NCBI GenBank assembly: GCA_045544295.1
Contig: JAZPYU010000165.1
Coordinates: 1-33,276 of the forward strand
Direction of reading: 5' to 3'
Length of the DNA stretch: 33,276 nucleotides
From: Ructibacterium sp.
GTDB taxonomy: Bacteria > Bacillota > Clostridia > Monoglobales > Monoglobaceae
The notes below the pieces were generated by a model. That model made no database searches. It saw only the letters and a program-made list of their open reading frames with translations, and was not told the origin of the DNA. The position numbers were made by a program, and so were the translations under genes. How positions within the stretch are numbered: the stretch's first letter is position 1; each line of letters begins with the position of its first letter. Positions 7,454-24,138 of the stretch are shown piece by piece.

Positions 7454-8401
7454 ATGATTGAAATCGAAAAGCCAAGAATTGAATGCTTAGAAGCATCCGA
7501 AGATAATAAATATGGCAAATTTGTTGTTGAGCCTCTGGAAAGAGGTTATGGCACAACGTTTGGCAACTCTCTCAGAAGAATGTTGCTGTCTTCCCTGCCG
7601 GGTGTGGCTGCAACATCTGTAAAGATTGATGGCGTTCTTCATGAATTTTCCACCATTCCCGGTGTAAAAGAAGATGTAACCGAAATCATTCTAAACATCA
7701 AGCAGTTGGCAATCAAATTACACGGCGATACTCCCAAAACGGTTTATATCAGCCAAGAGGGTGCCGGTGAAATTTGCGCAGGGGATATCAAGCATGATTC
7801 CGATGTAGAAATCATCAACGAAGACCTGCACATTGCAACTCTGAGTGAGGATGCAAAACTCTTTATGGAAATTACCTTAGACAGAGGCCGTGGATATGTG
7901 TCCGCAGACCGGAATAAGCAGATTCTGCAACCGGTGATTGGCGTTATCGCTACTGACTCTATCTACACTCCGGTTCAAAAGGTAAACTATACCGTAGAGA
8001 ATACTCGTGTTGGCAATATTACCGACTATGACAAACTGGTTTTGGAAGTATGGACCAATGGTACCATCACTCCTGCCGAAGCGGTTTCTTTGGCGGCGAA
8101 GATTGTTAGCGAGCATATGAACCTGTTTATCGACCTTTCCGATGAAGCAAAGAACACCGAGATTATGGTCGAGAAGGAAGAAAGCAAGAAAGAAAAGGTT
8201 CTGGAAACAACCATCGAAGAACTGGATCTGTCTGTTCGTTCCTACAACTGCTTAAAGCGTGCAGGTATCAATACGGTACAAGATTTGACCACACGTTCTG
8301 AGAACGATATGATGAAGGTGAGAAACCTTGGTCGCAAATCCCTGGAAGAGGTTATTGCAAAGTTAGACGGTATGGGTCTTTCTTTGGCAAATGAAGACTA
8401 A
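7454..8401 (+). CDS. rpoA: RNA polymerase alpha subunit
   Basis: [17 protein letters not shown] and [14 protein letters not shown] motifs. Confidence 0.98.
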
Positions 8402-8434
8402 TTCCTTTAAGAAATAAGAAAATGAGGTGATAAA

Positions 8435-8779
8435 ATGGCACACCAGAGAAAACTTGGCAGACCGACCGACCAGAGACGTGCAATGCTGAGATCTATGACT
8501 ACTTCTTTCCTGGAAAGCGGCAGAATTGAAACTACCGTTACCCGTGCAAAGGAAATTCGTAGAATCGCAGAGAAAATGGTTACCCTCGGCAAAGCCAATA
8601 CACTTCACACCAAGAGACAGGCGCTCAGTTACATTACCAAGCGCGATGTTGTGGTAAAGTTGTTTGATGAAATCGCTCCGAAGTACGCAGAGAGAAACGG
8701 TGGCTACACCCGGATTATCAAGATTGGTCCGCGTCGTGGCGACGCCGCTGAAATGGCAATTCTGGAGTTTGTTGATTAA
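8435..8779 (+). CDS. rplQ: 50S ribosomal protein L17
   Basis: [34 protein letters not shown]. Confidence 0.98.
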
Positions 8780-8792
8780 TCAAAATCAAATC

Positions 8793-8825
8793 AAAAACGG
8801 CATTTCCATAGGAATGCCGTTTTTT
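8793..8825 (+). terminator. Terminator of the alpha operon
   Basis: AAAAACGGCATT...AATGCCGTTTTTT. Confidence 0.85.
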
Positions 8826-8862
8826 GTATGCCTATTATTGTAGGGGATGGGTTACCAAAGCA

Positions 8863-8887
8863 TAAAAAGAAAACCGCCATAGGCGGT
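8863..8887 (-). terminator. Terminator of the ROK gene
   Basis: ACCGCC-tat-GGCGGT followed by TTTCTTTTT on the minus strand. Confidence 0.7.
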
Positions 8888-8932
8888 CTTCTTCCAAACT
8901 TTTTCACTATTACCTATTACTTATTCCATGCA

Positions 8933-9874
8933 TTATAACGCTGATGCCAATGCCGCACCAATGATGCCGGCTTCGTTAAAGAGGGTAGCAATTTTCAATT
9001 CTGTCTTAGATGCTTCGTGACAGAAGGTGTTAGTTTTCATATATTCCTTGATGGGATTTAACAGATAATCCCCTTCCCGGCTAATACCGCCACCGATTAC
9101 AATCATATTCGGCTGGAAAATGTTAATCATAGAAGAAATACCATCTGCTACATATTCGAGGTATTGGTCTACCACTTTTTGTGCTGCCGCATCTCCGGCT
9201 TTTGCTGCATCAAAAGCGGTTCTGCCACTGACTTTGCCGGCTTCTTTGACATACTGAACCATCAAACTATCCGGAGTTTCTTCTATTGCGGCTCTGGTCT
9301 GGTTAATCAAAGCGGTGACGGAAGCGTAGGCTTCCCAACAACCCTTTCTGCCACAGCCACAGGGAATGCCGTTGTAAACCAAGGAAAAGTGTCCTAATTC
9401 TCCTGCCGTTCCGTTGGCACCACGGAAAATCTTTTTGTCAAGAACAATCCCACCGCCAACGCCGGTGCCCAAAGTAACCGCCAGGAAAGAATTTGCCTTG
9501 CCACCGGTTGCCATAAATTCGCCATAGGCTGCGGCGTTCGCATCGTTCTCTAATTGAACAGGAATGTTGGGGAAATAAGAACGAAGTTCCTCTACCAAAG
9601 GAGCGTTTTCAAATTTTAGGTTATAAGCAACTAAAACCAAACCGTTCTTTGTGTCAATGGCGCCGGGAGAACCAATGCCAATACCCTTGATATCTGCCAT
9701 AGTAAAGCCGGCATCTTTGACAATTTCTTCGCAGAGTTCTGCCATATCTTTTACAATTTCCTGATAGGGACGGGGTGCGTTGGTGGGACGGGAAGATTGT
9801 TTTAAAATTTCTAACTTTTCCGTTACCAACCCAACGGCAATGTTGGTGCCGCCTAAATCAATACCTATATACAT
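8933..9874 (-). CDS. ROK-family sugar kinase (glucokinase-like)
   Basis: IGIDLGGT, ENDANAAA, LGTGVGGG, GELGH and CGCGRKGCWE; no N-terminal HTH; start MYIG at 9874 after GGAGG. Confidence 0.92.
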   Translation of the reverse strand: MYIGIDLGGTNIAVGLVTEKLEILKQSSRPTNAPRPYQEIVKDMAELCEEIVKDAGFTMADIKGIGIGSPGAIDTKNGLVLVAYNLKFENAPLVEELRSYFPNIPVQLENDANAAAYGEFMATGGKANSFLAVTLGTGVGGGIVLDKKIFRGANGTAGELGHFSLVYNGIPCGCGRKGCWEAYASVTALINQTRAAIEETPDSLMVQYVKEAGKVSGRTAFDAAKAGDAAAQKVVDQYLEYVADGISSMINIFQPNMIVIGGGISREGDYLLNPIKEYMKTNTFCHEASKTELKIATLFNEAGIIGAALASAL

Positions 9875-17410: not shown

Positions 17411-17658
17411 GTAGGGTTCGGCCTCCCGGACGAACCGCGACCTCGAAGGAAATGACCATAACGGGACGTCGTTCTCGCGTTGGGCAAATATACCGGTGGC
17501 ATATTTGTAGCGGAAAATGAGATGCGACAGCATCGGCTTTTAGGAAACGGGAAGCGTTTCTACAAAAAATGTTACGCCGTCCCCTACGAATTTTTTGCGC
17601 ACTTTGTTTGATGTAAAATTGAAAATGGAAATTGTAGGGTCGATTCACGAATCGCCCG
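17411..17658. repeat. Cluster of GTAG-type REP-like palindromes
   Basis: GTAGGGTTCG..CGAACCG (17411-17437); a split minus-strand copy (17462-17471 and 17574-17587); GTAGGGTCGATTCACGAATCGCCCG (17634-17658). Confidence 0.75.
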
Positions 17659-18915: not shown

Positions 18916-19368
18916 ATGAACCAAATAGCAATGAATGACGCGATGTCGATAGGAATTATTGGCGCTGGTGCGGCGATATACACAATCTTCCTTGTTGCCA
19001 TTGCAGTTATGGTAGTTGTAGCGCTTTGGAAAATCTTTGAAAAATCCGGTGAACAAGGATGGAAATCCTTAATTCCTGTCTATTCCAGTTATCTGATTTA
19101 TAAGATTGCCTGGGATAGAAGAGCCTTCTGGATTACTATGCTGTTAGGATTGCTTTCCAGCGTTCTTATGGGGATTCCTATGATTGGACCGGCGTTAGGT
19201 GTTATCGGTGCACTTTTAGCGGGATTGCTGGAAGTTGTCTGCACGGTGAAACTCGCTAAGGCATTTGAACACGGTGGTTGGTTCGCGTTAGGTTTGATTT
19301 TGTTAAGTCCTATCTTCATTTTGATTTTGGCCTTTGATAAGTCTGAATATATAGGACCGCAACAATAA
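18916..19368 (+). CDS. DUF5684-like membrane protein
   Basis: WKIFEKSGEQGWKSLIPVY...LAKAF..GGWFALGLILL.PIF..ILAF. Confidence 0.75.
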   Translation: MNQIAMNDAMSIGIIGAGAAIYTIFLVAIAVMVVVALWKIFEKSGEQGWKSLIPVYSSYLIYKIAWDRRAFWITMLLGLLSSVLMGIPMIGPALGVIGALLAGLLEVVCTVKLAKAFEHGGWFALGLILLSPIFILILAFDKSEYIGPQQ

Positions 19369-19405
19369 AAAATGACCTTTAGGCAGATGCCTAAAGGTCA
19401 TTTTT
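19368..19405 (+). terminator. Strong, possibly bidirectional terminator
   Basis: Perfect inverted repeat AAAAATGACCTTTAGGCA-ga-TGCCTAAAGGTCATTTTT. Confidence 0.88.
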
Positions 19406-19482
19406 CTATTATTTCCCGTTTTTGATGCTATATTTCCGGGATGGATAAAAAATCCCTCCGTCATTTTTTTGTTATCTTTCTA

Positions 19483-19511
19483 TTGAAAATCAAAAGATGC
19501 TGTGCTATAAT
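19483..19511 (+). promoter_or_regulatory. Sigma-A promoter
   Basis: TTGAAA(19483)-17 bp-TATAAT(19506) with extended TG. Confidence 0.75.
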
Positions 19512-19539
19512 GAATTTAATTGCAAAGCAATTAAATTCA

Positions 19540-19717
19540 GCGATATAAATTCCTTACGGAATTTGCGATATACCTTGCGGTGCGATATATCCTGACGGAT
19601 GCGATATGTCCCTTCGGGACGAGAAAAAGGAATTTATATCATATCGCAACCGAATAAAATGAGGTTATATCGCATTTGAGAAACAAATATATCGCACGAA
19701 CGAAGTGAGTATATCGC
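19540..19717. repeat. Structured GCGATAT x4 / ATATCGC x4 repeat element
   Basis: GCGATAT at 19540, 19565, 19582 and 19601; ATATCGC at 19641, 19667, 19689 and 19711; the spacers are hairpins. Confidence 0.9.
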
Positions 19718-19722
19718 CAAAA

Positions 19723-19756
19723 AGTTGGCATCTAAATTGTGCACGAATTCTATAAT
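19723..19756 (+). repeat. 34-bp direct repeat, copy A
   Basis: AGTTGGCATCTAAATTGTGCACGAATTCTATAAT; 28/34 identical to 22341-22374 by hand alignment. Confidence 0.8.
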
Positions 19757-19774
19757 AAAATCGCCTTACGACTT

Positions 19775-19824
19775 GTAGGGGATATTCACGAATGTCCAGC
19801 GGGCGGTTCGTGACCCGCCCCTAC
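19775..19824. repeat. Inverted REP doublet (REPIN-like)
   Basis: GTAGGGGATATTCACGAATGTCC on + facing GTAGGGGCGGGTCACGAACCGCCCG on -. Confidence 0.8.
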
Positions 19825-20010
19825 GATGTACTTTGCACGCTAAAAACGAATTTAATTTAGCTAATCCAAAGGAGTTATTGAACTATGGAGCGTAGTGAAA
19901 CATTCTAAAGGCTCGACTGCAAGGTATCAAGAAGTCTGTGATATAAATAAATTTTTTATACATAAACACGAAAAAATAAAATCAATATATAAAAACAGGG
20001 TGGTACGAAA

Positions 20011-21141
20011 ATGGGTAACAGTATTAACTATTCATACGAAAAACTTAAAAAATTCTGCATAGATGCATTTGAGAAGTTCGGCTTTTCAAAAGAGGAAAGC
20101 GACATTATCACAGATGTGCTTCTGACTAGCGACTTATATGGTATCGAATCCCACGGAATGCAGAGACTTGTTCGTTATCATAAGGGAATTGAAAAAGGTC
20201 TTATTAAGGTAGATGCAAAGCCGGAGATTGTGTTTGAGACTCCTGTATCAGCAGTTATTGAGGGTAATGACGGCATGGGTCAGCTTTTGGGATACAAAGC
20301 TATGAATATAGCTATCGAAAAGGCTAAGCAGACCGGTATGGCGATTGTTACGGTGAGAAATTCAAATCACTATGGTATTGCCGGATACTATGCCAAAATG
20401 GCATGTAAAGAAGGACTTATCGGTATGTCTATGACAAACTCCGAAGCGATCATGGTCCCGACCTTTGGCAGAAAAGCTATGTTGGGAAGCAACCCAATCG
20501 CAATCGCTATGCCGGCAGAGCCTTACGATTTCTTCTTTGATGCATCAACAACCGTTGTAACACGTGGTAAATTGGAAATCTATAATAAATTGGGAAAACC
20601 GCTTCCTGAAGGCTGGGCCCTGGGCGCTAACGGAAAAGGGAGCTCGGATGCGGCAGACGTACTTAAAAATATAGTTGCAAAAGCAGGCGGCGGAATTGTA
20701 CCGCTTGGCGGTGAAATTGAACAAAGCGGAAGCCACAAGGGCTACGGGTACGGTATGTTCTGCGAAATTTTTACATCTATCCTGTCAATGGGTATTACAT
20801 CAAATCATACACATATCGGCGGCAAGGGTGGCACCTGTCATGGGTTTATCGCTATCAATCCTGCAGTATTTGGTGATGCAGATGAAATTCGTGAGCACCT
20901 TTCAACGCTTCTTTGTGAACTTCGTGAATCACCAAAAGCTGAGGGACAGGAACGCATCTATACTCACGGCGAAAAGGAAGTGTTTGCATATAAGGACAGA
21001 ATGGAGAACGGAATTGATGTAAATATCAATACTGTTGCAGAAATGGTTGACCTTTGCAAATATCTTGAGATGGACGTTTGCGAATATCTTGGTGAAGAAG
21101 CAGAAAAACTTACACTTACACAGAGTACATACGATATGTGA
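20011..21141 (+). CDS. Ldh_2-family (malate/L-lactate/sulfolactate-type) oxidoreductase
   Basis: SDLYGIESHG..RL, RNSNHYG.AGYY, GSNPIAIAMP, HKGYGYG. Confidence 0.9.
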   Translation: MGNSINYSYEKLKKFCIDAFEKFGFSKEESDIITDVLLTSDLYGIESHGMQRLVRYHKGIEKGLIKVDAKPEIVFETPVSAVIEGNDGMGQLLGYKAMNIAIEKAKQTGMAIVTVRNSNHYGIAGYYAKMACKEGLIGMSMTNSEAIMVPTFGRKAMLGSNPIAIAMPAEPYDFFFDASTTVVTRGKLEIYNKLGKPLPEGWALGANGKGSSDAADVLKNIVAKAGGGIVPLGGEIEQSGSHKGYGYGMFCEIFTSILSMGITSNHTHIGGKGGTCHGFIAINPAVFGDADEIREHLSTLLCELRESPKAEGQERIYTHGEKEVFAYKDRMENGIDVNINTVAEMVDLCKYLEMDVCEYLGEEAEKLTLTQSTYDM

Positions 21142-21155
21142 CAGGAGGAATAACA

Positions 21156-22328
21156 GTGGATATTAAAAAAGAAGCGCTAAAAAAACATGAGGAATGGCAA
21201 GGGAAAATTGAGGTTATATCAAGAGCCTCTGTTAAAAGCAGAGAACAGTTATCTCTTGCATATACCCCGGGTGTTGCGGAGCCTTGTCTTGTCATTCAAA
21301 AGGATATAAATAAATCCTATGAATTGACTCGCAGACATAACTTAGTTGCTGTTATAACCGATGGTTCTGCAGTTTTAGGGCTTGGCGACATTGGCCCTGA
21401 GGCGGGTATGCCGGTTATGGAGGGGAAGTGTGCATTATTTAAGGAATTTGCAGATGTTGATGCATTCCCCTTGTGTATAAAGACTCAGGATGTTGACGAA
21501 CTTGTAAGAACGATTTATCTGCTCTCTGGGTCATTTGGCGGAATCAATCTTGAGGATATTGCGGCACCGAGATGTTTTGAAGTCGAAAAACGTTTGAGAG
21601 AAATCTGTGACATTCCGGTATTCCACGACGACCAGCACGGAACGGCAATTGTTGTTGCGGCTGCCATGATTAACGCATTAAAGGTTGTTAAGAAAAATAT
21701 CGAAGATATTAAAGTCGTTATCAATGGAGCAGGAAGTGCCGGAACTGCAATCGGTATGCATCTTATGAAGATTGGTGTTAAAAATCTTATTATGGTTGAC
21801 AGGTTTGGTATCATTTGTGAAGGTATGGATGGTTTGACTGATGCCCACAAGGAACTTTCAAAGATTACAAACCGCAAAAAGTTACAGGGAAGTCTCTCTG
21901 ATGCAATGAAAGGTGCAGACGTGTTCATTGGAGTTTCTGCACCCAATATTGTCTCTGCTGATATGGTAAGCACAATGAACGAAGGCGCTATAATTTTTGC
22001 TATGGCAAACCCTGTTCCGGAAATTCTTCCGGATGTTGCGAAAGAGGGAGGGGCGGTAGTTGTCGGAACAGGTCGTTCAGATTACCCTAATCAGATTAAC
22101 AATGTGGTTGCATTCCCGGGGATTTTCAGAGGTGCTTTGGACGTTCGTGCAAGTGACATCAATGACGAAATGAAACTGGCAGCATCTTATGCTATTGCAG
22201 GACTTGTTTCAGATGAGGAACTCAACGCAGATTACATATTACCAATGGCTTTCGATGAGAGAATTGGTAAGACCGTAGCGGCTGCCGTTGCAGATGCAGC
22301 AAGAAAGAGCGGTGTTGCAAGAATATAA
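21156..22328 (+). CDS. NAD(P)-dependent malic enzyme (MaeB N-terminal/YtsJ type)
   Basis: AYTPGVA, TDGSAVLGLGDIG, PVMEGK, GINLEDI, HDDQHGT, GAGSAG, GRSDYPNQINN; GTG 21156 after GGAGG. Confidence 0.95.
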   Translation: MDIKKEALKKHEEWQGKIEVISRASVKSREQLSLAYTPGVAEPCLVIQKDINKSYELTRRHNLVAVITDGSAVLGLGDIGPEAGMPVMEGKCALFKEFADVDAFPLCIKTQDVDELVRTIYLLSGSFGGINLEDIAAPRCFEVEKRLREICDIPVFHDDQHGTAIVVAAAMINALKVVKKNIEDIKVVINGAGSAGTAIGMHLMKIGVKNLIMVDRFGIICEGMDGLTDAHKELSKITNRKKLQGSLSDAMKGADVFIGVSAPNIVSADMVSTMNEGAIIFAMANPVPEILPDVAKEGGAVVVGTGRSDYPNQINNVVAFPGIFRGALDVRASDINDEMKLAASYAIAGLVSDEELNADYILPMAFDERIGKTVAAAVADAARKSGVARI

Positions 22329-22340
22329 AAACAAAAAATC

Positions 22341-22374
22341 AGTTGTTATCTAAAATGTACACGGATTTTATAAT
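22341..22374 (+). repeat. 34-bp direct repeat, copy B
   Basis: AGTTGTTATCTAAAATGTACACGGATTTTATAAT. Confidence 0.8.
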
Positions 22375-22553
22375 GAGTTTGCAAAGCAAACCCAGTGAAT
22401 TGCACCCATAGGTGTATGATATAGGCAATTCCATTCATATTGCGACAGCACCAGATCATAGCGGTACGCCAATTTATGGCAGAGGTGTTATCCATTCATT
22501 TTTTGACCTTATTTGATAGGAGCATAGTGTGGATGTCAAAAAGGAGAAATATT

Positions 22554-23057
22554 ATGAACAGAGAAAAATTCAAGTATAGCGTGGTATTTTTAATAGCGTT
22601 TCTCTTCATACCTATTTGTGCAAGTGCTAACATGGTTTGGCCATCTTTATATATTGCAGAAGGTATGAGAAGTTGGTATGTTATATTGATTGGTCTTGTC
22701 ATAGAGGTAGTATTTGTGAAGTGTTGTATCAAAGCAACCTATCCGAAATCAGTTTTGATTGCATTTGTTATGAATTTAGTGTCTACGGTTTTAGGGGTTG
22801 TTGCAATACCGCTGAGTGGTCTTATAGGCGAAGTTTTTATGATTCCTTTTGGCACAGGAACATTTCATCCTACCCATTGGTTGATGAGTTATGTGTTTGC
22901 TATACTTTCCAATGTACTTATTGAGGGACTAACTGTAAAACTTATTTTTAAATATCGATTTAAGAAAATGTTTTGGTGGCTTTGTGCAGTTAATGCAATT
23001 AGCATTATCGTTTGCATTTTATTTCACGGAATCGCAATGCAAAATATAAAGATTTAG
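22554..23057 (+). CDS. Hypothetical multi-TM membrane protein
   Basis: ATG 22554 after AAGGAG; about 5 hydrophobic segments; internal repeat pattern (IE...K...A..N..S) twice. Confidence 0.7.
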   Translation: MNREKFKYSVVFLIAFLFIPICASANMVWPSLYIAEGMRSWYVILIGLVIEVVFVKCCIKATYPKSVLIAFVMNLVSTVLGVVAIPLSGLIGEVFMIPFGTGTFHPTHWLMSYVFAILSNVLIEGLTVKLIFKYRFKKMFWWLCAVNAISIIVCILFHGIAMQNIKI

Positions 23058-23097
23058 TTGTTAAGTATAAAAATCAATATGAGAGAGTGTGTTTGTT

Positions 23098-24060
23098 ATG
23101 GCATTGGTGGATATGTCCATAGAAAAATTGTATGAATATCAGGGGAGTTCTCCTTGCCCCAAGGACTTTGACGAGTATTGGGAAACCGCCCTTTTAGAAG
23201 TGAGAAACTTAGACCCGAAAGCAGAGTTTATCAAAAAAGATTTTCCGTCTAAAATTGCGGATATGTACGACCTTTATTTTACCGGCACCAAAGGTGCCAG
23301 AATTCATGCCCGGATGGCGGTACCCAAGCAGATAGAAGGCAAAGCACCTGCAACCCTGCTTTTCCATGGTCTGGGTGGTTATTGCGGTGATTGGTGCGGA
23401 GCCCTTCTCCGTCAGGCGTCTCAGGGGCATGTGGCTGTGGCGATGGATGTTCGTGGTCAGGGCGGCCTTTCCGAAGATGCTGGTGGTGTGGGCGGTAACA
23501 CCCAAATGAGCCCGTTTATGAGAGGTATTGACGGAGATAAGCACGACCTTTTGATGCGGGACGTGTACTTAGATACCGTGCAACTTGCTAAAATTGTCAT
23601 GGGCATTGACTATGTAGACGAAACCCGTGTGGCAAGTGCCGGCGGTTCTCAGGGGGGATGCCTGAGTATTATCTGTGCTTGTCTGGTACCGGAAATTAAA
23701 AAATGTGCAGCGTCCTATCCATACCTTTCTGACTTTAAACGAGTGATGAATATGGATTTAAATATCAACGCCTATGATGGATTAAAGCAGTATTTCCGGA
23801 ACTATGACCCCACCCACGCAAGGGAAGATGCCATTTTTGAGCGGTTGGGTTATATTGATATTCAGAACTTTGCCAAGTGGATGCGAGGGGAACTTTTGAT
23901 GTTCACCGGAATGATGGACAATATCTGCCCGCCCTCTACCCAGTTTGCAATGTATAACAAGGTGACGTCTAAAAAGAATGTAATCTTTTATCCGGAGTTC
24001 GGCCACGAAGCACTTCGGGGTGCAGAAGATACTGTCTTTACCTTTTTAAGCGATTTATAA
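23098..24060 (+). CDS. CE7 acetylxylan esterase / cephalosporin-C deacetylase
   Basis: P.DFDEYW, FHG, RGQ, GGSQGG nucleophile elbow, D.ICPPSTQFA.YN, GHE. Confidence 0.92.
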   Translation: MALVDMSIEKLYEYQGSSPCPKDFDEYWETALLEVRNLDPKAEFIKKDFPSKIADMYDLYFTGTKGARIHARMAVPKQIEGKAPATLLFHGLGGYCGDWCGALLRQASQGHVAVAMDVRGQGGLSEDAGGVGGNTQMSPFMRGIDGDKHDLLMRDVYLDTVQLAKIVMGIDYVDETRVASAGGSQGGCLSIICACLVPEIKKCAASYPYLSDFKRVMNMDLNINAYDGLKQYFRNYDPTHAREDAIFERLGYIDIQNFAKWMRGELLMFTGMMDNICPPSTQFAMYNKVTSKKNVIFYPEFGHEALRGAEDTVFTFLSDL

Positions 24061-24138
24061 GATAAAAGTTCCAAAGCCTTTCGTATAGTTTTGGGTTTCA
24101 GGTAAAAACTAAAACCATCTGATACGGGAGGTTTTTTT

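Follow-up and report, generated by a model that had tools for sequence, protein, structure and literature searches.

The array at positions 19,540 to 19,717 of the window, the window being the whole 33,276-nt stretch of Ructibacterium sp. DNA that was analysed, is a member of a dispersed family of two-armed repeat elements. The copies lie in many genomic contexts, their stems covary and their loops are strand-asymmetric. They are linked to genes of the protein family PF05635, are absent from some of the corresponding sites in related phages and interchange with tandem arrays of 7-mers at one site. It is proposed that the array is a solo copy of a mobile PF05635 module in which extruded DNA hairpins line up heptamers for a protein ring, a reading judged as likely to be right as wrong. 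The array and its neighbouring features are as follows:

19483..19511, plus strand: sigma-70-like promoter (TTGAAA-17-TATAAT, extended -10), 11 of 12 matches, assigned purely by consensus match
19511..19539, no strand: leading 13-bp hairpin (TG...CA) that abuts the first heptamer; its first base is the last base of the -10 box
19540..19620, minus strand: left arm, four GCGATAT heptamers with a perfect short hairpin after each
19621..19640, no strand: linker of 20 nt
19641..19717, plus strand: right arm, four ATATCGC heptamers and three hairpin spacers (tandem GA/GA; AAA, AGAAA and GAA loops)
19725..19756, plus strand: GCATCTA...TATAAT 'joint' motif, common after arrays in this genome; second copy at 22343-22374
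19757..19925, plus strand: decayed second array, GCTAAAT class, by local alignment to locus L211
19775-19824: GTAG-type REP-like hairpin that splits the decayed GCTAAAT array; many copies in the genome
22375..22450, plus strand: third array, also decayed, of the ATGAATT class; it follows the second joint motif directly and was assigned by a weaker local alignment to locus L254

The eight heptamers (GCGATAT starting at 19540, 19565, 19582 and 19601; ATATCGC starting at 19641, 19667, 19689 and 19711), the fourth left hairpin, the 20-nt linker, the loops and the tandem GA/GA pairs all lie where the initial annotation had placed them, and the six inter-heptamer spacers are indeed all closed by Watson-Crick pairs at the repeat edges. 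On the minus strand the left-arm loops read GTAA, GCAA, GTCA and GAA. The window contains 11 heptamers against 2.88 expected, a number reached in 0 of 100 shuffles, and eight of the 11 fall inside the 178 nt. The earlier rejection of a CRISPR array stands on repeat length, as the repeats are of 7 nt and the spacers self-complementary whereas CRISPR direct repeats measure 23-47 bp and are separated by unique spacers (PMC1933234, in the part available).

Two further parts, both absent from the initial annotation, belong to the element. The first is the hairpin at 19511-19539, which abuts the first heptamer; at least six pairs form a stem here in 109 of 130 homologues compared with 60 of 249 control positions. 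The second is a segment of the linker, 19627-19640, that is perfectly complementary to 19542-19555 over 14 bp and contains a second copy of the first hairpin's 3' arm. The helix formed by the linker is 99.5% paired with three covarying pairs, and its complementarity amounts to 12.2 nt against 10.2 with shuffled partners (maximum 11.0); shared descent or gene conversion could contribute to this covariation. By eye, the repeat of the 3' arm is also seen in GCTAAAT-class and tandem-type arrays.

Rfam at its gathering cut-off (50 bits) leaves the element unmatched, the sole match in the window being a tRNA. To this extent the claim that it has no named family holds; below the cut-off each arm resembles Gut-1 (RF01706), the left arm on the plus strand with 27.5 bits (E 0.004) and the right arm on the minus strand with 17.3 bits. 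In the portion of the main text and tables available, Gut-1 is a single orphan non-coding RNA from the gut (Weinberg et al. 2010, PMC2864571). The likeness lies in a short conserved linker motif that alternates with covarying hairpins, in the gut bacterial hosts and in the match of both arms to the model. The element has the three covarying hairpins and short conserved linkers that define Gut-1, but its linker motif differs from the Rfam consensus (GCGATAT rather than the GTGAAAT type) and neither arm reaches 50 bits. Unlike the model it comprises two arms, a leading hairpin, a linker and a link to PF05635, and its loops favour the opposite strand, and DNA.

The suggestion of a dispersed, non-autonomous element with two equivalent arms is borne out by copies and homologues in many contexts. 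The genome of origin yields 15 RF01706 matches at E<=1, which represent at least six heptamer types and frequently form convergent pairs, as well as a full-length paralogue (84%) on contig C49 in a different gene context; in four of five loci scanned, Gut-1-like units stand right behind tRNA genes. A DNA search returned matches in 15 of 41 genomes, this one included, and a search with the class pattern found at least 125 loci elsewhere; among the matches listed, all 80 titled loci are Clostridia-type MAGs. Across 160 sampled Clostridia there are at least 150 Gut-1 hits (lower bounds, with the best 50 candidates scored per genome), with at least 26 convergent pairs, one tandem pair and no divergent pair among the matches listed. 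At least 23 of the 46 hits above the cut-off in these genomes lie within a convergent pair, and therefore what is catalogued as Gut-1 is often one arm of a two-armed element. In four gut metagenomes, contigs pile up on 19506-19760 and 19826-19896 and depth is zero at 19000-19469.

The promoter at 19483..19511 is probably a host promoter behind which the element sits. In the orthologous locus of genome G014 (L166) it occupies the same position and is followed directly by a permease leader, the whole 4.56 kb (19511-24076) that begins with the array being missing. Since G014 lacks this entire stretch and the other seven ortholog loci examined have different downstream genes, no base-exact empty site is available for the window copy. 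The 4.56 kb consists of three units, each starting after a TATAAT, such that this hexamer stands on both sides of the window unit. It encodes an Ldh_2 dehydrogenase, a malic enzyme, an uncharacterised ORF and an esterase-like ORF. The location of the array between a strong promoter and the ORF at 20011 would suit an operator array that regulates the downstream dehydrogenase and malic-enzyme genes. This reading, already disfavoured, is scarcely credible: near-identical copies lie beside unrelated genes, tRNAs and phage head genes, and the heptamer periods range from 14 to 28 bp without helical phase.

Within the same region, GCATCTA was considered as a universal right end of the element and discarded, as it occurs after 3 of 44 solo elements (control 0 of 89) and after 5 of 89 PF05635 genes (control 2 of 86); L308 carries it three times without an array. 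In L259, L262, L286, L293, L308 and the window, GCATCTA is followed by about 18 variable bases whose end resembles the insertion context, TATAAT after promoters and CCA plus a terminator after tRNAs. L308 has four copies of one GCATCTA variant between ORFs, in the manner of cassette joints, and the TTATGT present in some copies is reminiscent of a XerD arm. In contig C92 of genome G000 (7851-8977), what we take to be a barnase/barstar-like pair has an ATGAAAT array on one side and a joint motif on the other. A 205-aa hydrophobic ORF at 22440-23057 of the window has no Pfam or NCBIfam match and may in fact begin only after the decayed third array. A further GTAG-type REP-like hairpin is found at 17631-17658.

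The counts that follow for ladder, loop strand and rung mismatches derive from elements with a strict order of four heptamers, linker, ATATC and four inverted heptamers, an order shown by 51 of 118 arms with enough flank, or 51 of 131 distinct left arms. The spacer hairpins are under selection, as had been supposed. In a 37-sequence alignment (32 of the 51 parsed elements, namely those on the plus strand minus L111 and L115, and five others, two of these five being slightly mis-trimmed) every spacer helix shows changes on both sides and is 92.6-100% paired. Spacers closed at their edges number 148 of 153 on the left, where the first hairpin was imposed by the search pattern, and 144 of 153 on the right, versus about 35 after shuffling; counting unique spacers, closure is seen in 79 of 84 for the unforced second and third left hairpins and in 127 of 136 for the right arm. 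The predicted stability of the whole fold also withstood comparison with shuffled sequences (z -5.2 to -6.0 on both strands, as RNA and as DNA, with 0 of 200 shuffles as stable), z-scores of a size that inverted repeats alone also produce.

The chain of three perfect four-way junctions, which the initial annotation had placed at the centre of its interpretation, fares less well. It can be drawn without unpaired junction bases, and that part of the claim stands, but it is not the predicted minimum. As RNA, the drawn structure reaches -47.2 kcal/mol and the minimum -57.4, a difference that is not decisive as nearest-neighbour models handle junction energies roughly; the mean pair probability is 0.98 for the heptamer ladder and 0.18 for the spacer hairpins. 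A register-specific chain is not supported, with 6 of 55 deviating rungs compensated and equal scores for nested and parallel registers of the ladder (155 versus 155). Five of the seven pairs in each rung are invariant and therefore contribute no covariation signal, what there is being limited to the class-defining first base, and, depending on the rung, 3-9 of the 37 sequences leave position 1 unpaired. Some copies have a missing or truncated right arm or a linker insert of 70-130 nt. That one strand forms a functional junction chain, for instance as a resolvase or recombinase substrate, would fit the agreement in heptamer class between the two arms (47 of 51), the presence of three or more inverted heptamers in 89 of 115 elements with enough flank, and the excess of convergent over divergent RF01706 pairs (26 versus none among those listed); on balance it is very improbable. 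The linker inserts are of two recurrent kinds and were observed in L011, L012, L044, L064 and L282.

Loops of 3-4 nt closed by G..A occur on the ATATCG-type strand rather than the other in a ratio of 59 to 1 in left arms (38 versus 1 of 75; 21 versus 0 of 29) and of 30 to 0 of 61 in right arms, and six other heptamer classes behave alike (left 29 versus 1 of 47, right 17 versus 0 of 42). These counts agree with the earlier proposal that, in each arm, the strand with ATATCGC has loops suited to single-stranded DNA. GNRA loops are fewer than GNA triloops and GNYA tetraloops, and the GCGATAT class has no UNCG loop. Mini-hairpins with GNA and GNNA loops are far more stable as DNA than as RNA and occur at single-stranded origins and in the N4 promoter (PMC13037366, in the part available). 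Overall, loop types and strand asymmetry favour DNA as the working polymer, without proving it. The right arm is compatible with RNA as well, as it carries 11 G-T wobbles versus 2 A-C on the plus strand, and 34 tandem GA pairs versus 0.

The element might work as RNA, as part of a 5' leader or intercistronic transcript in which the arms form the ladder, or in which the right arm binds a PF05635 ring near the ribosome-binding site and brings about translational autoregulation or RNase III-type processing like that of rRNA intervening sequences, with solo copies as leftovers. A strong promoter lies directly upstream, the ORF upstream is directed towards the left arm in 39 of 56 cases (70% against a baseline of 46-50%) and all eight of eight adjacent tRNAs are co-oriented with the element. 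The ladder is predicted with near certainty in RNA, the covarying linker could act as a switch, and in the related protein Avd all five protomers take part in binding an RNA stem-loop (10.1101/2023.10.23.563531, in the part available). Against this, the stable-loop motifs of the left arm are of the DNA type and lie on the strand opposite to the upstream promoter, which is the untranscribed one, rung mismatches on the plus strand show no wobble bias (12 G-T versus 13 A-C) and the linker form has a pair probability of 0.0 in the full-length fold. An RNA function is thus rather unlikely, although it is the strongest of the competing explanations considered for the window copy.

The candidate partner of the element is the PF05635 protein, an Avd-like four-helix bundle. 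Among the matches listed, the closest homologues of the window copy, L010 and L031 (88%), are followed immediately by an ORF for a four-helix bundle that scores above the cut-off of TIGR02436 and has as homologue PDB 2RLD (five chains, E 1.9e-22). In 11 of 72 elements a PF05635 gene immediately follows the array, and in 2 of 79 such a gene lies within 500 nt upstream. With 12 of 88 loci (564 ORFs) it is the commonest neighbouring family, the next real families being found in at most five loci and a cluster of eight loci consisting of ORFs read off the element or a tRNA. At the genome level PF05635 is present in 27 of 31 Gut-1-positive and 28 of 129 other genomes, an association inflated by kinship as the genomes are related and the counts not independent. 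The start codon of the gene lies 11-18 nt after the last heptamer in six of seven cases, a spacing that the RNA reading can also claim.

Viewed from the protein, arrays of 7-mers accompany 69 of 86 PF05635 genes (the best 90 hits minus one duplicate and three with short flanks), 27 of them hairpin-spaced and upstream and 41 tandem, with controls at 0 and 2 of 86 and 2 and 2 of 150; the tandem arrays frequently form an inverted pair around the gene. In a quick tree, from which one misplaced row and the proteins below 85 aa were dropped, the heptamer class follows the protein clade, and the clades span host families; G137 was omitted from the analysis. As arm and gene are physically linked, such tracking is expected from co-inheritance alone. 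The window copy lacks the gene, as do 61 of 72 elements, and the single PF05635 gene found in the genome of origin (82.6% complete) belongs to another clade and stands behind a GTGAAGT-class array. One query of viral contigs found no close relatives of the protein. PF05635 resembles Avd (PMC10053308) and has been reported in cas loci (PMC3936711), both sources in the part available. Literature that joins Gut-1, heptamer arrays and PF05635 was not found in a search whose scope excluded most subscription journals; Gut-1 is a known orphan motif, and its system with PF05635 is apparently undescribed. At L196 and L197 the PF05635 genes are flanked by repeats with a period of about 11 nt rather than 7.

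In the mechanism proposed here each arm would fold its short hairpins on a different DNA strand. The hairpins may be extruded during transcription or replication, giving locally single-stranded or cruciform DNA, and once folded would bring the heptamers into one continuous row on which the predicted five-subunit ring could land. Each subunit of the ring would bind roughly a single heptamer, on the strand that carries ATATCGC. Together, ring and arms would constitute a minimal mobile module in which the ring serves as an adaptor, and host recombination or repair enzymes would copy the module to gene junctions such as stop codons, tRNA ends and -10 boxes. The heptamer ladder would be a by-product of having two inverted arms, and for the window copy the protein would have to come in trans. 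Two points weigh against this scheme: four heptamers per arm do not match five subunits, and a strand that holds both arms is predicted to bury the heptamers in the ladder. A mobilising enzyme was not found in the 88 loci or by co-occurrence across genomes.

Mobility itself is most visible in related phages. After the capsid gene an array is present in L280 and L281 and absent in L282 and L276; the L281 array starts at the stop codon, where L282 and L276 run straight into the next gene. After a portal-like gene the site is likewise filled in L280 and L281 and empty in L282. Before the capsid gene the array is of the GCGATAT class in L276 and of the TCGATAT class in L282, and L280 has a two-armed array of tandem 7-mers. 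Hairpin-spaced and tandem arrays hence occupy one and the same site, which would be expected were the heptamers brought together by hairpin extrusion. The L276 copy lies between direct repeats of 18 nt; the phage empty sites are too diverged to give base-exact ends of the element. In the IMG/VR contigs L279-L281, L276 and L277/L282 the phage head operons bear arrays at several gene junctions, starting at stop codons, and in L281 the two array types, hairpin-spaced and tandem, are next to each other. No PF05635 gene was seen in the fetched stretches of these operons. Of the 11 hits of the pattern in viral contigs, two or three (L278, L283, L285) lack hairpins and match by chance. A rule that would place the leading hairpin exactly at the stop codon was dropped, as it is true of three phage copies and the offsets scatter in 52 chromosomal cases.

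Such empty sites, together with the inverted two-arm build, the many copies, the direct repeat around the L276 copy and the TATAAT on both sides of the window unit, could also be those of a MITE- or REPIN-like passenger that is moved by a transposase, HUH nuclease or reverse transcriptase (RT) encoded elsewhere in the genome, with PF05635 as a frequent cargo. The placement immediately 3' of a hairpin is reminiscent of the way group IIC introns choose their targets, which speaks for the same reading. However, no transposase, integrase or RT family recurs among the 564 ORFs of the 88 loci (one integrase-like pair occurs in two loci), and the arrays flank PF05635 genes in two different builds. 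In 80 genomes RT is present in 4 of 15 Gut-1-positive and 30 of 65 other genomes and Y1 transposase in 7 of 15 and 43 of 65, on which grounds retro-mobility and RAYT mobility were rejected, compared with 13 of 15 and 15 of 65 for PF05635. The genome of origin, at 82.6% completeness, contains no RT and one weak, partial Y1 transposase hit (C52). A passenger of this kind is consequently improbable, and the PF05635 module is preferred.

On comparison with known systems the element falls outside Gut-1, intervening sequences (IVS) of 23S rRNA, REP, MITE and diversity-generating retroelements (DGR) on at least one defining feature each. It works most like an IVS-type PF05635 module. ORF-bearing 23S rRNA IVS encode PF05635/S23p, have inverted repeats able to form a long stem, are sporadic and moved horizontally (PMC4990558, in the part available). 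In contrast to these the element is not inside an rRNA gene, its 20-nt linker contains no ORF, the gene of its relatives follows both arms instead of lying between them, and its arms consist of hairpin-spaced heptamers. The available text of PMC4990558 never mentions tandem repeats.

REP and REPIN sequences are dispersed intergenic palindromes, arranged as inverted doublets near stop codons and read as single-stranded DNA. The element shares with the REP/REPIN-RAYT system its dispersal, intergenic palindromes, inverted doublets and proximity to stop codons but has neither a GTAG-type foot nor a linked or co-occurring Y1 transposase. The terminal inverted repeats of MITEs have a counterpart in the two inverted arms, outside which the leading hairpin lies, and clustering and a motif screen revealed no transposase-bearing autonomous partner with the same ends within about 4 kb at the 88 loci. 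The Avd protein of DGRs forms a pentamer, and flipped bases are read in the crevices where its protomers adjoin (10.1101/2023.10.23.563531, in the part available); the element differs from DGRs, which pair RT with Avd, in that RT is neither found in its own genome nor enriched. Intergenic TAACTGA heptamer repeats have a 7-nt period, lie upstream of start codons and show apparent horizontal transfer with no mechanism known (PMC4679880, in the part available). They are plain tandem repeats, unlike the element, and the main text of PMC4679880 mentions neither a helix bundle nor an intervening sequence, IVS, pentamer or S23.

A wider generalisation can be offered tentatively, and is clearly less secure than the module reading itself. 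Here the element would represent an undescribed, minimal mobile class devoid of a transposase, whose ring reads 7-nt units on single DNA strands, be they tandem repeats or heptamers joined up by the extrusion of mini-hairpins, with a clade-specific heptamer; Gut-1 would be an arm modelled on the wrong strand, and 23S IVS and many heptamer repeats would be products of the class. The orphan motif Gut-1 and the orphan but very widespread family PF05635/TIGR02436 share one cheap test. If the ring binds the heptamer of its clade, a catalogued 'ncRNA' would be reassigned, a cause would be offered for unexplained bacterial heptamer repeats and a route of spread without a known transposase would be indicated. 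The phage comparison adds that a single site can be filled by either hairpin-spaced or tandem arrays. The copy in the window is solo, and any effect on its host is putative.

Several loci show further arrangements. In L286 (G166:C100, 386-2760) two near-identical terminator-plus-array units stand in direct orientation 2.1 kb apart and enclose two lipoprotein-like ORFs. L287, L300, L309 and L310 carry a GC-rich palindromic module between a tRNA and an apparent repeat of the tRNA 3' end, before the terminator and the array. In L186 (G228:C30) and L195 (G159:C19) a PF05635 gene with tandem 7-mer arms seemingly splits a long ORF, which presumably resembles the BREX methyltransferase PglX.
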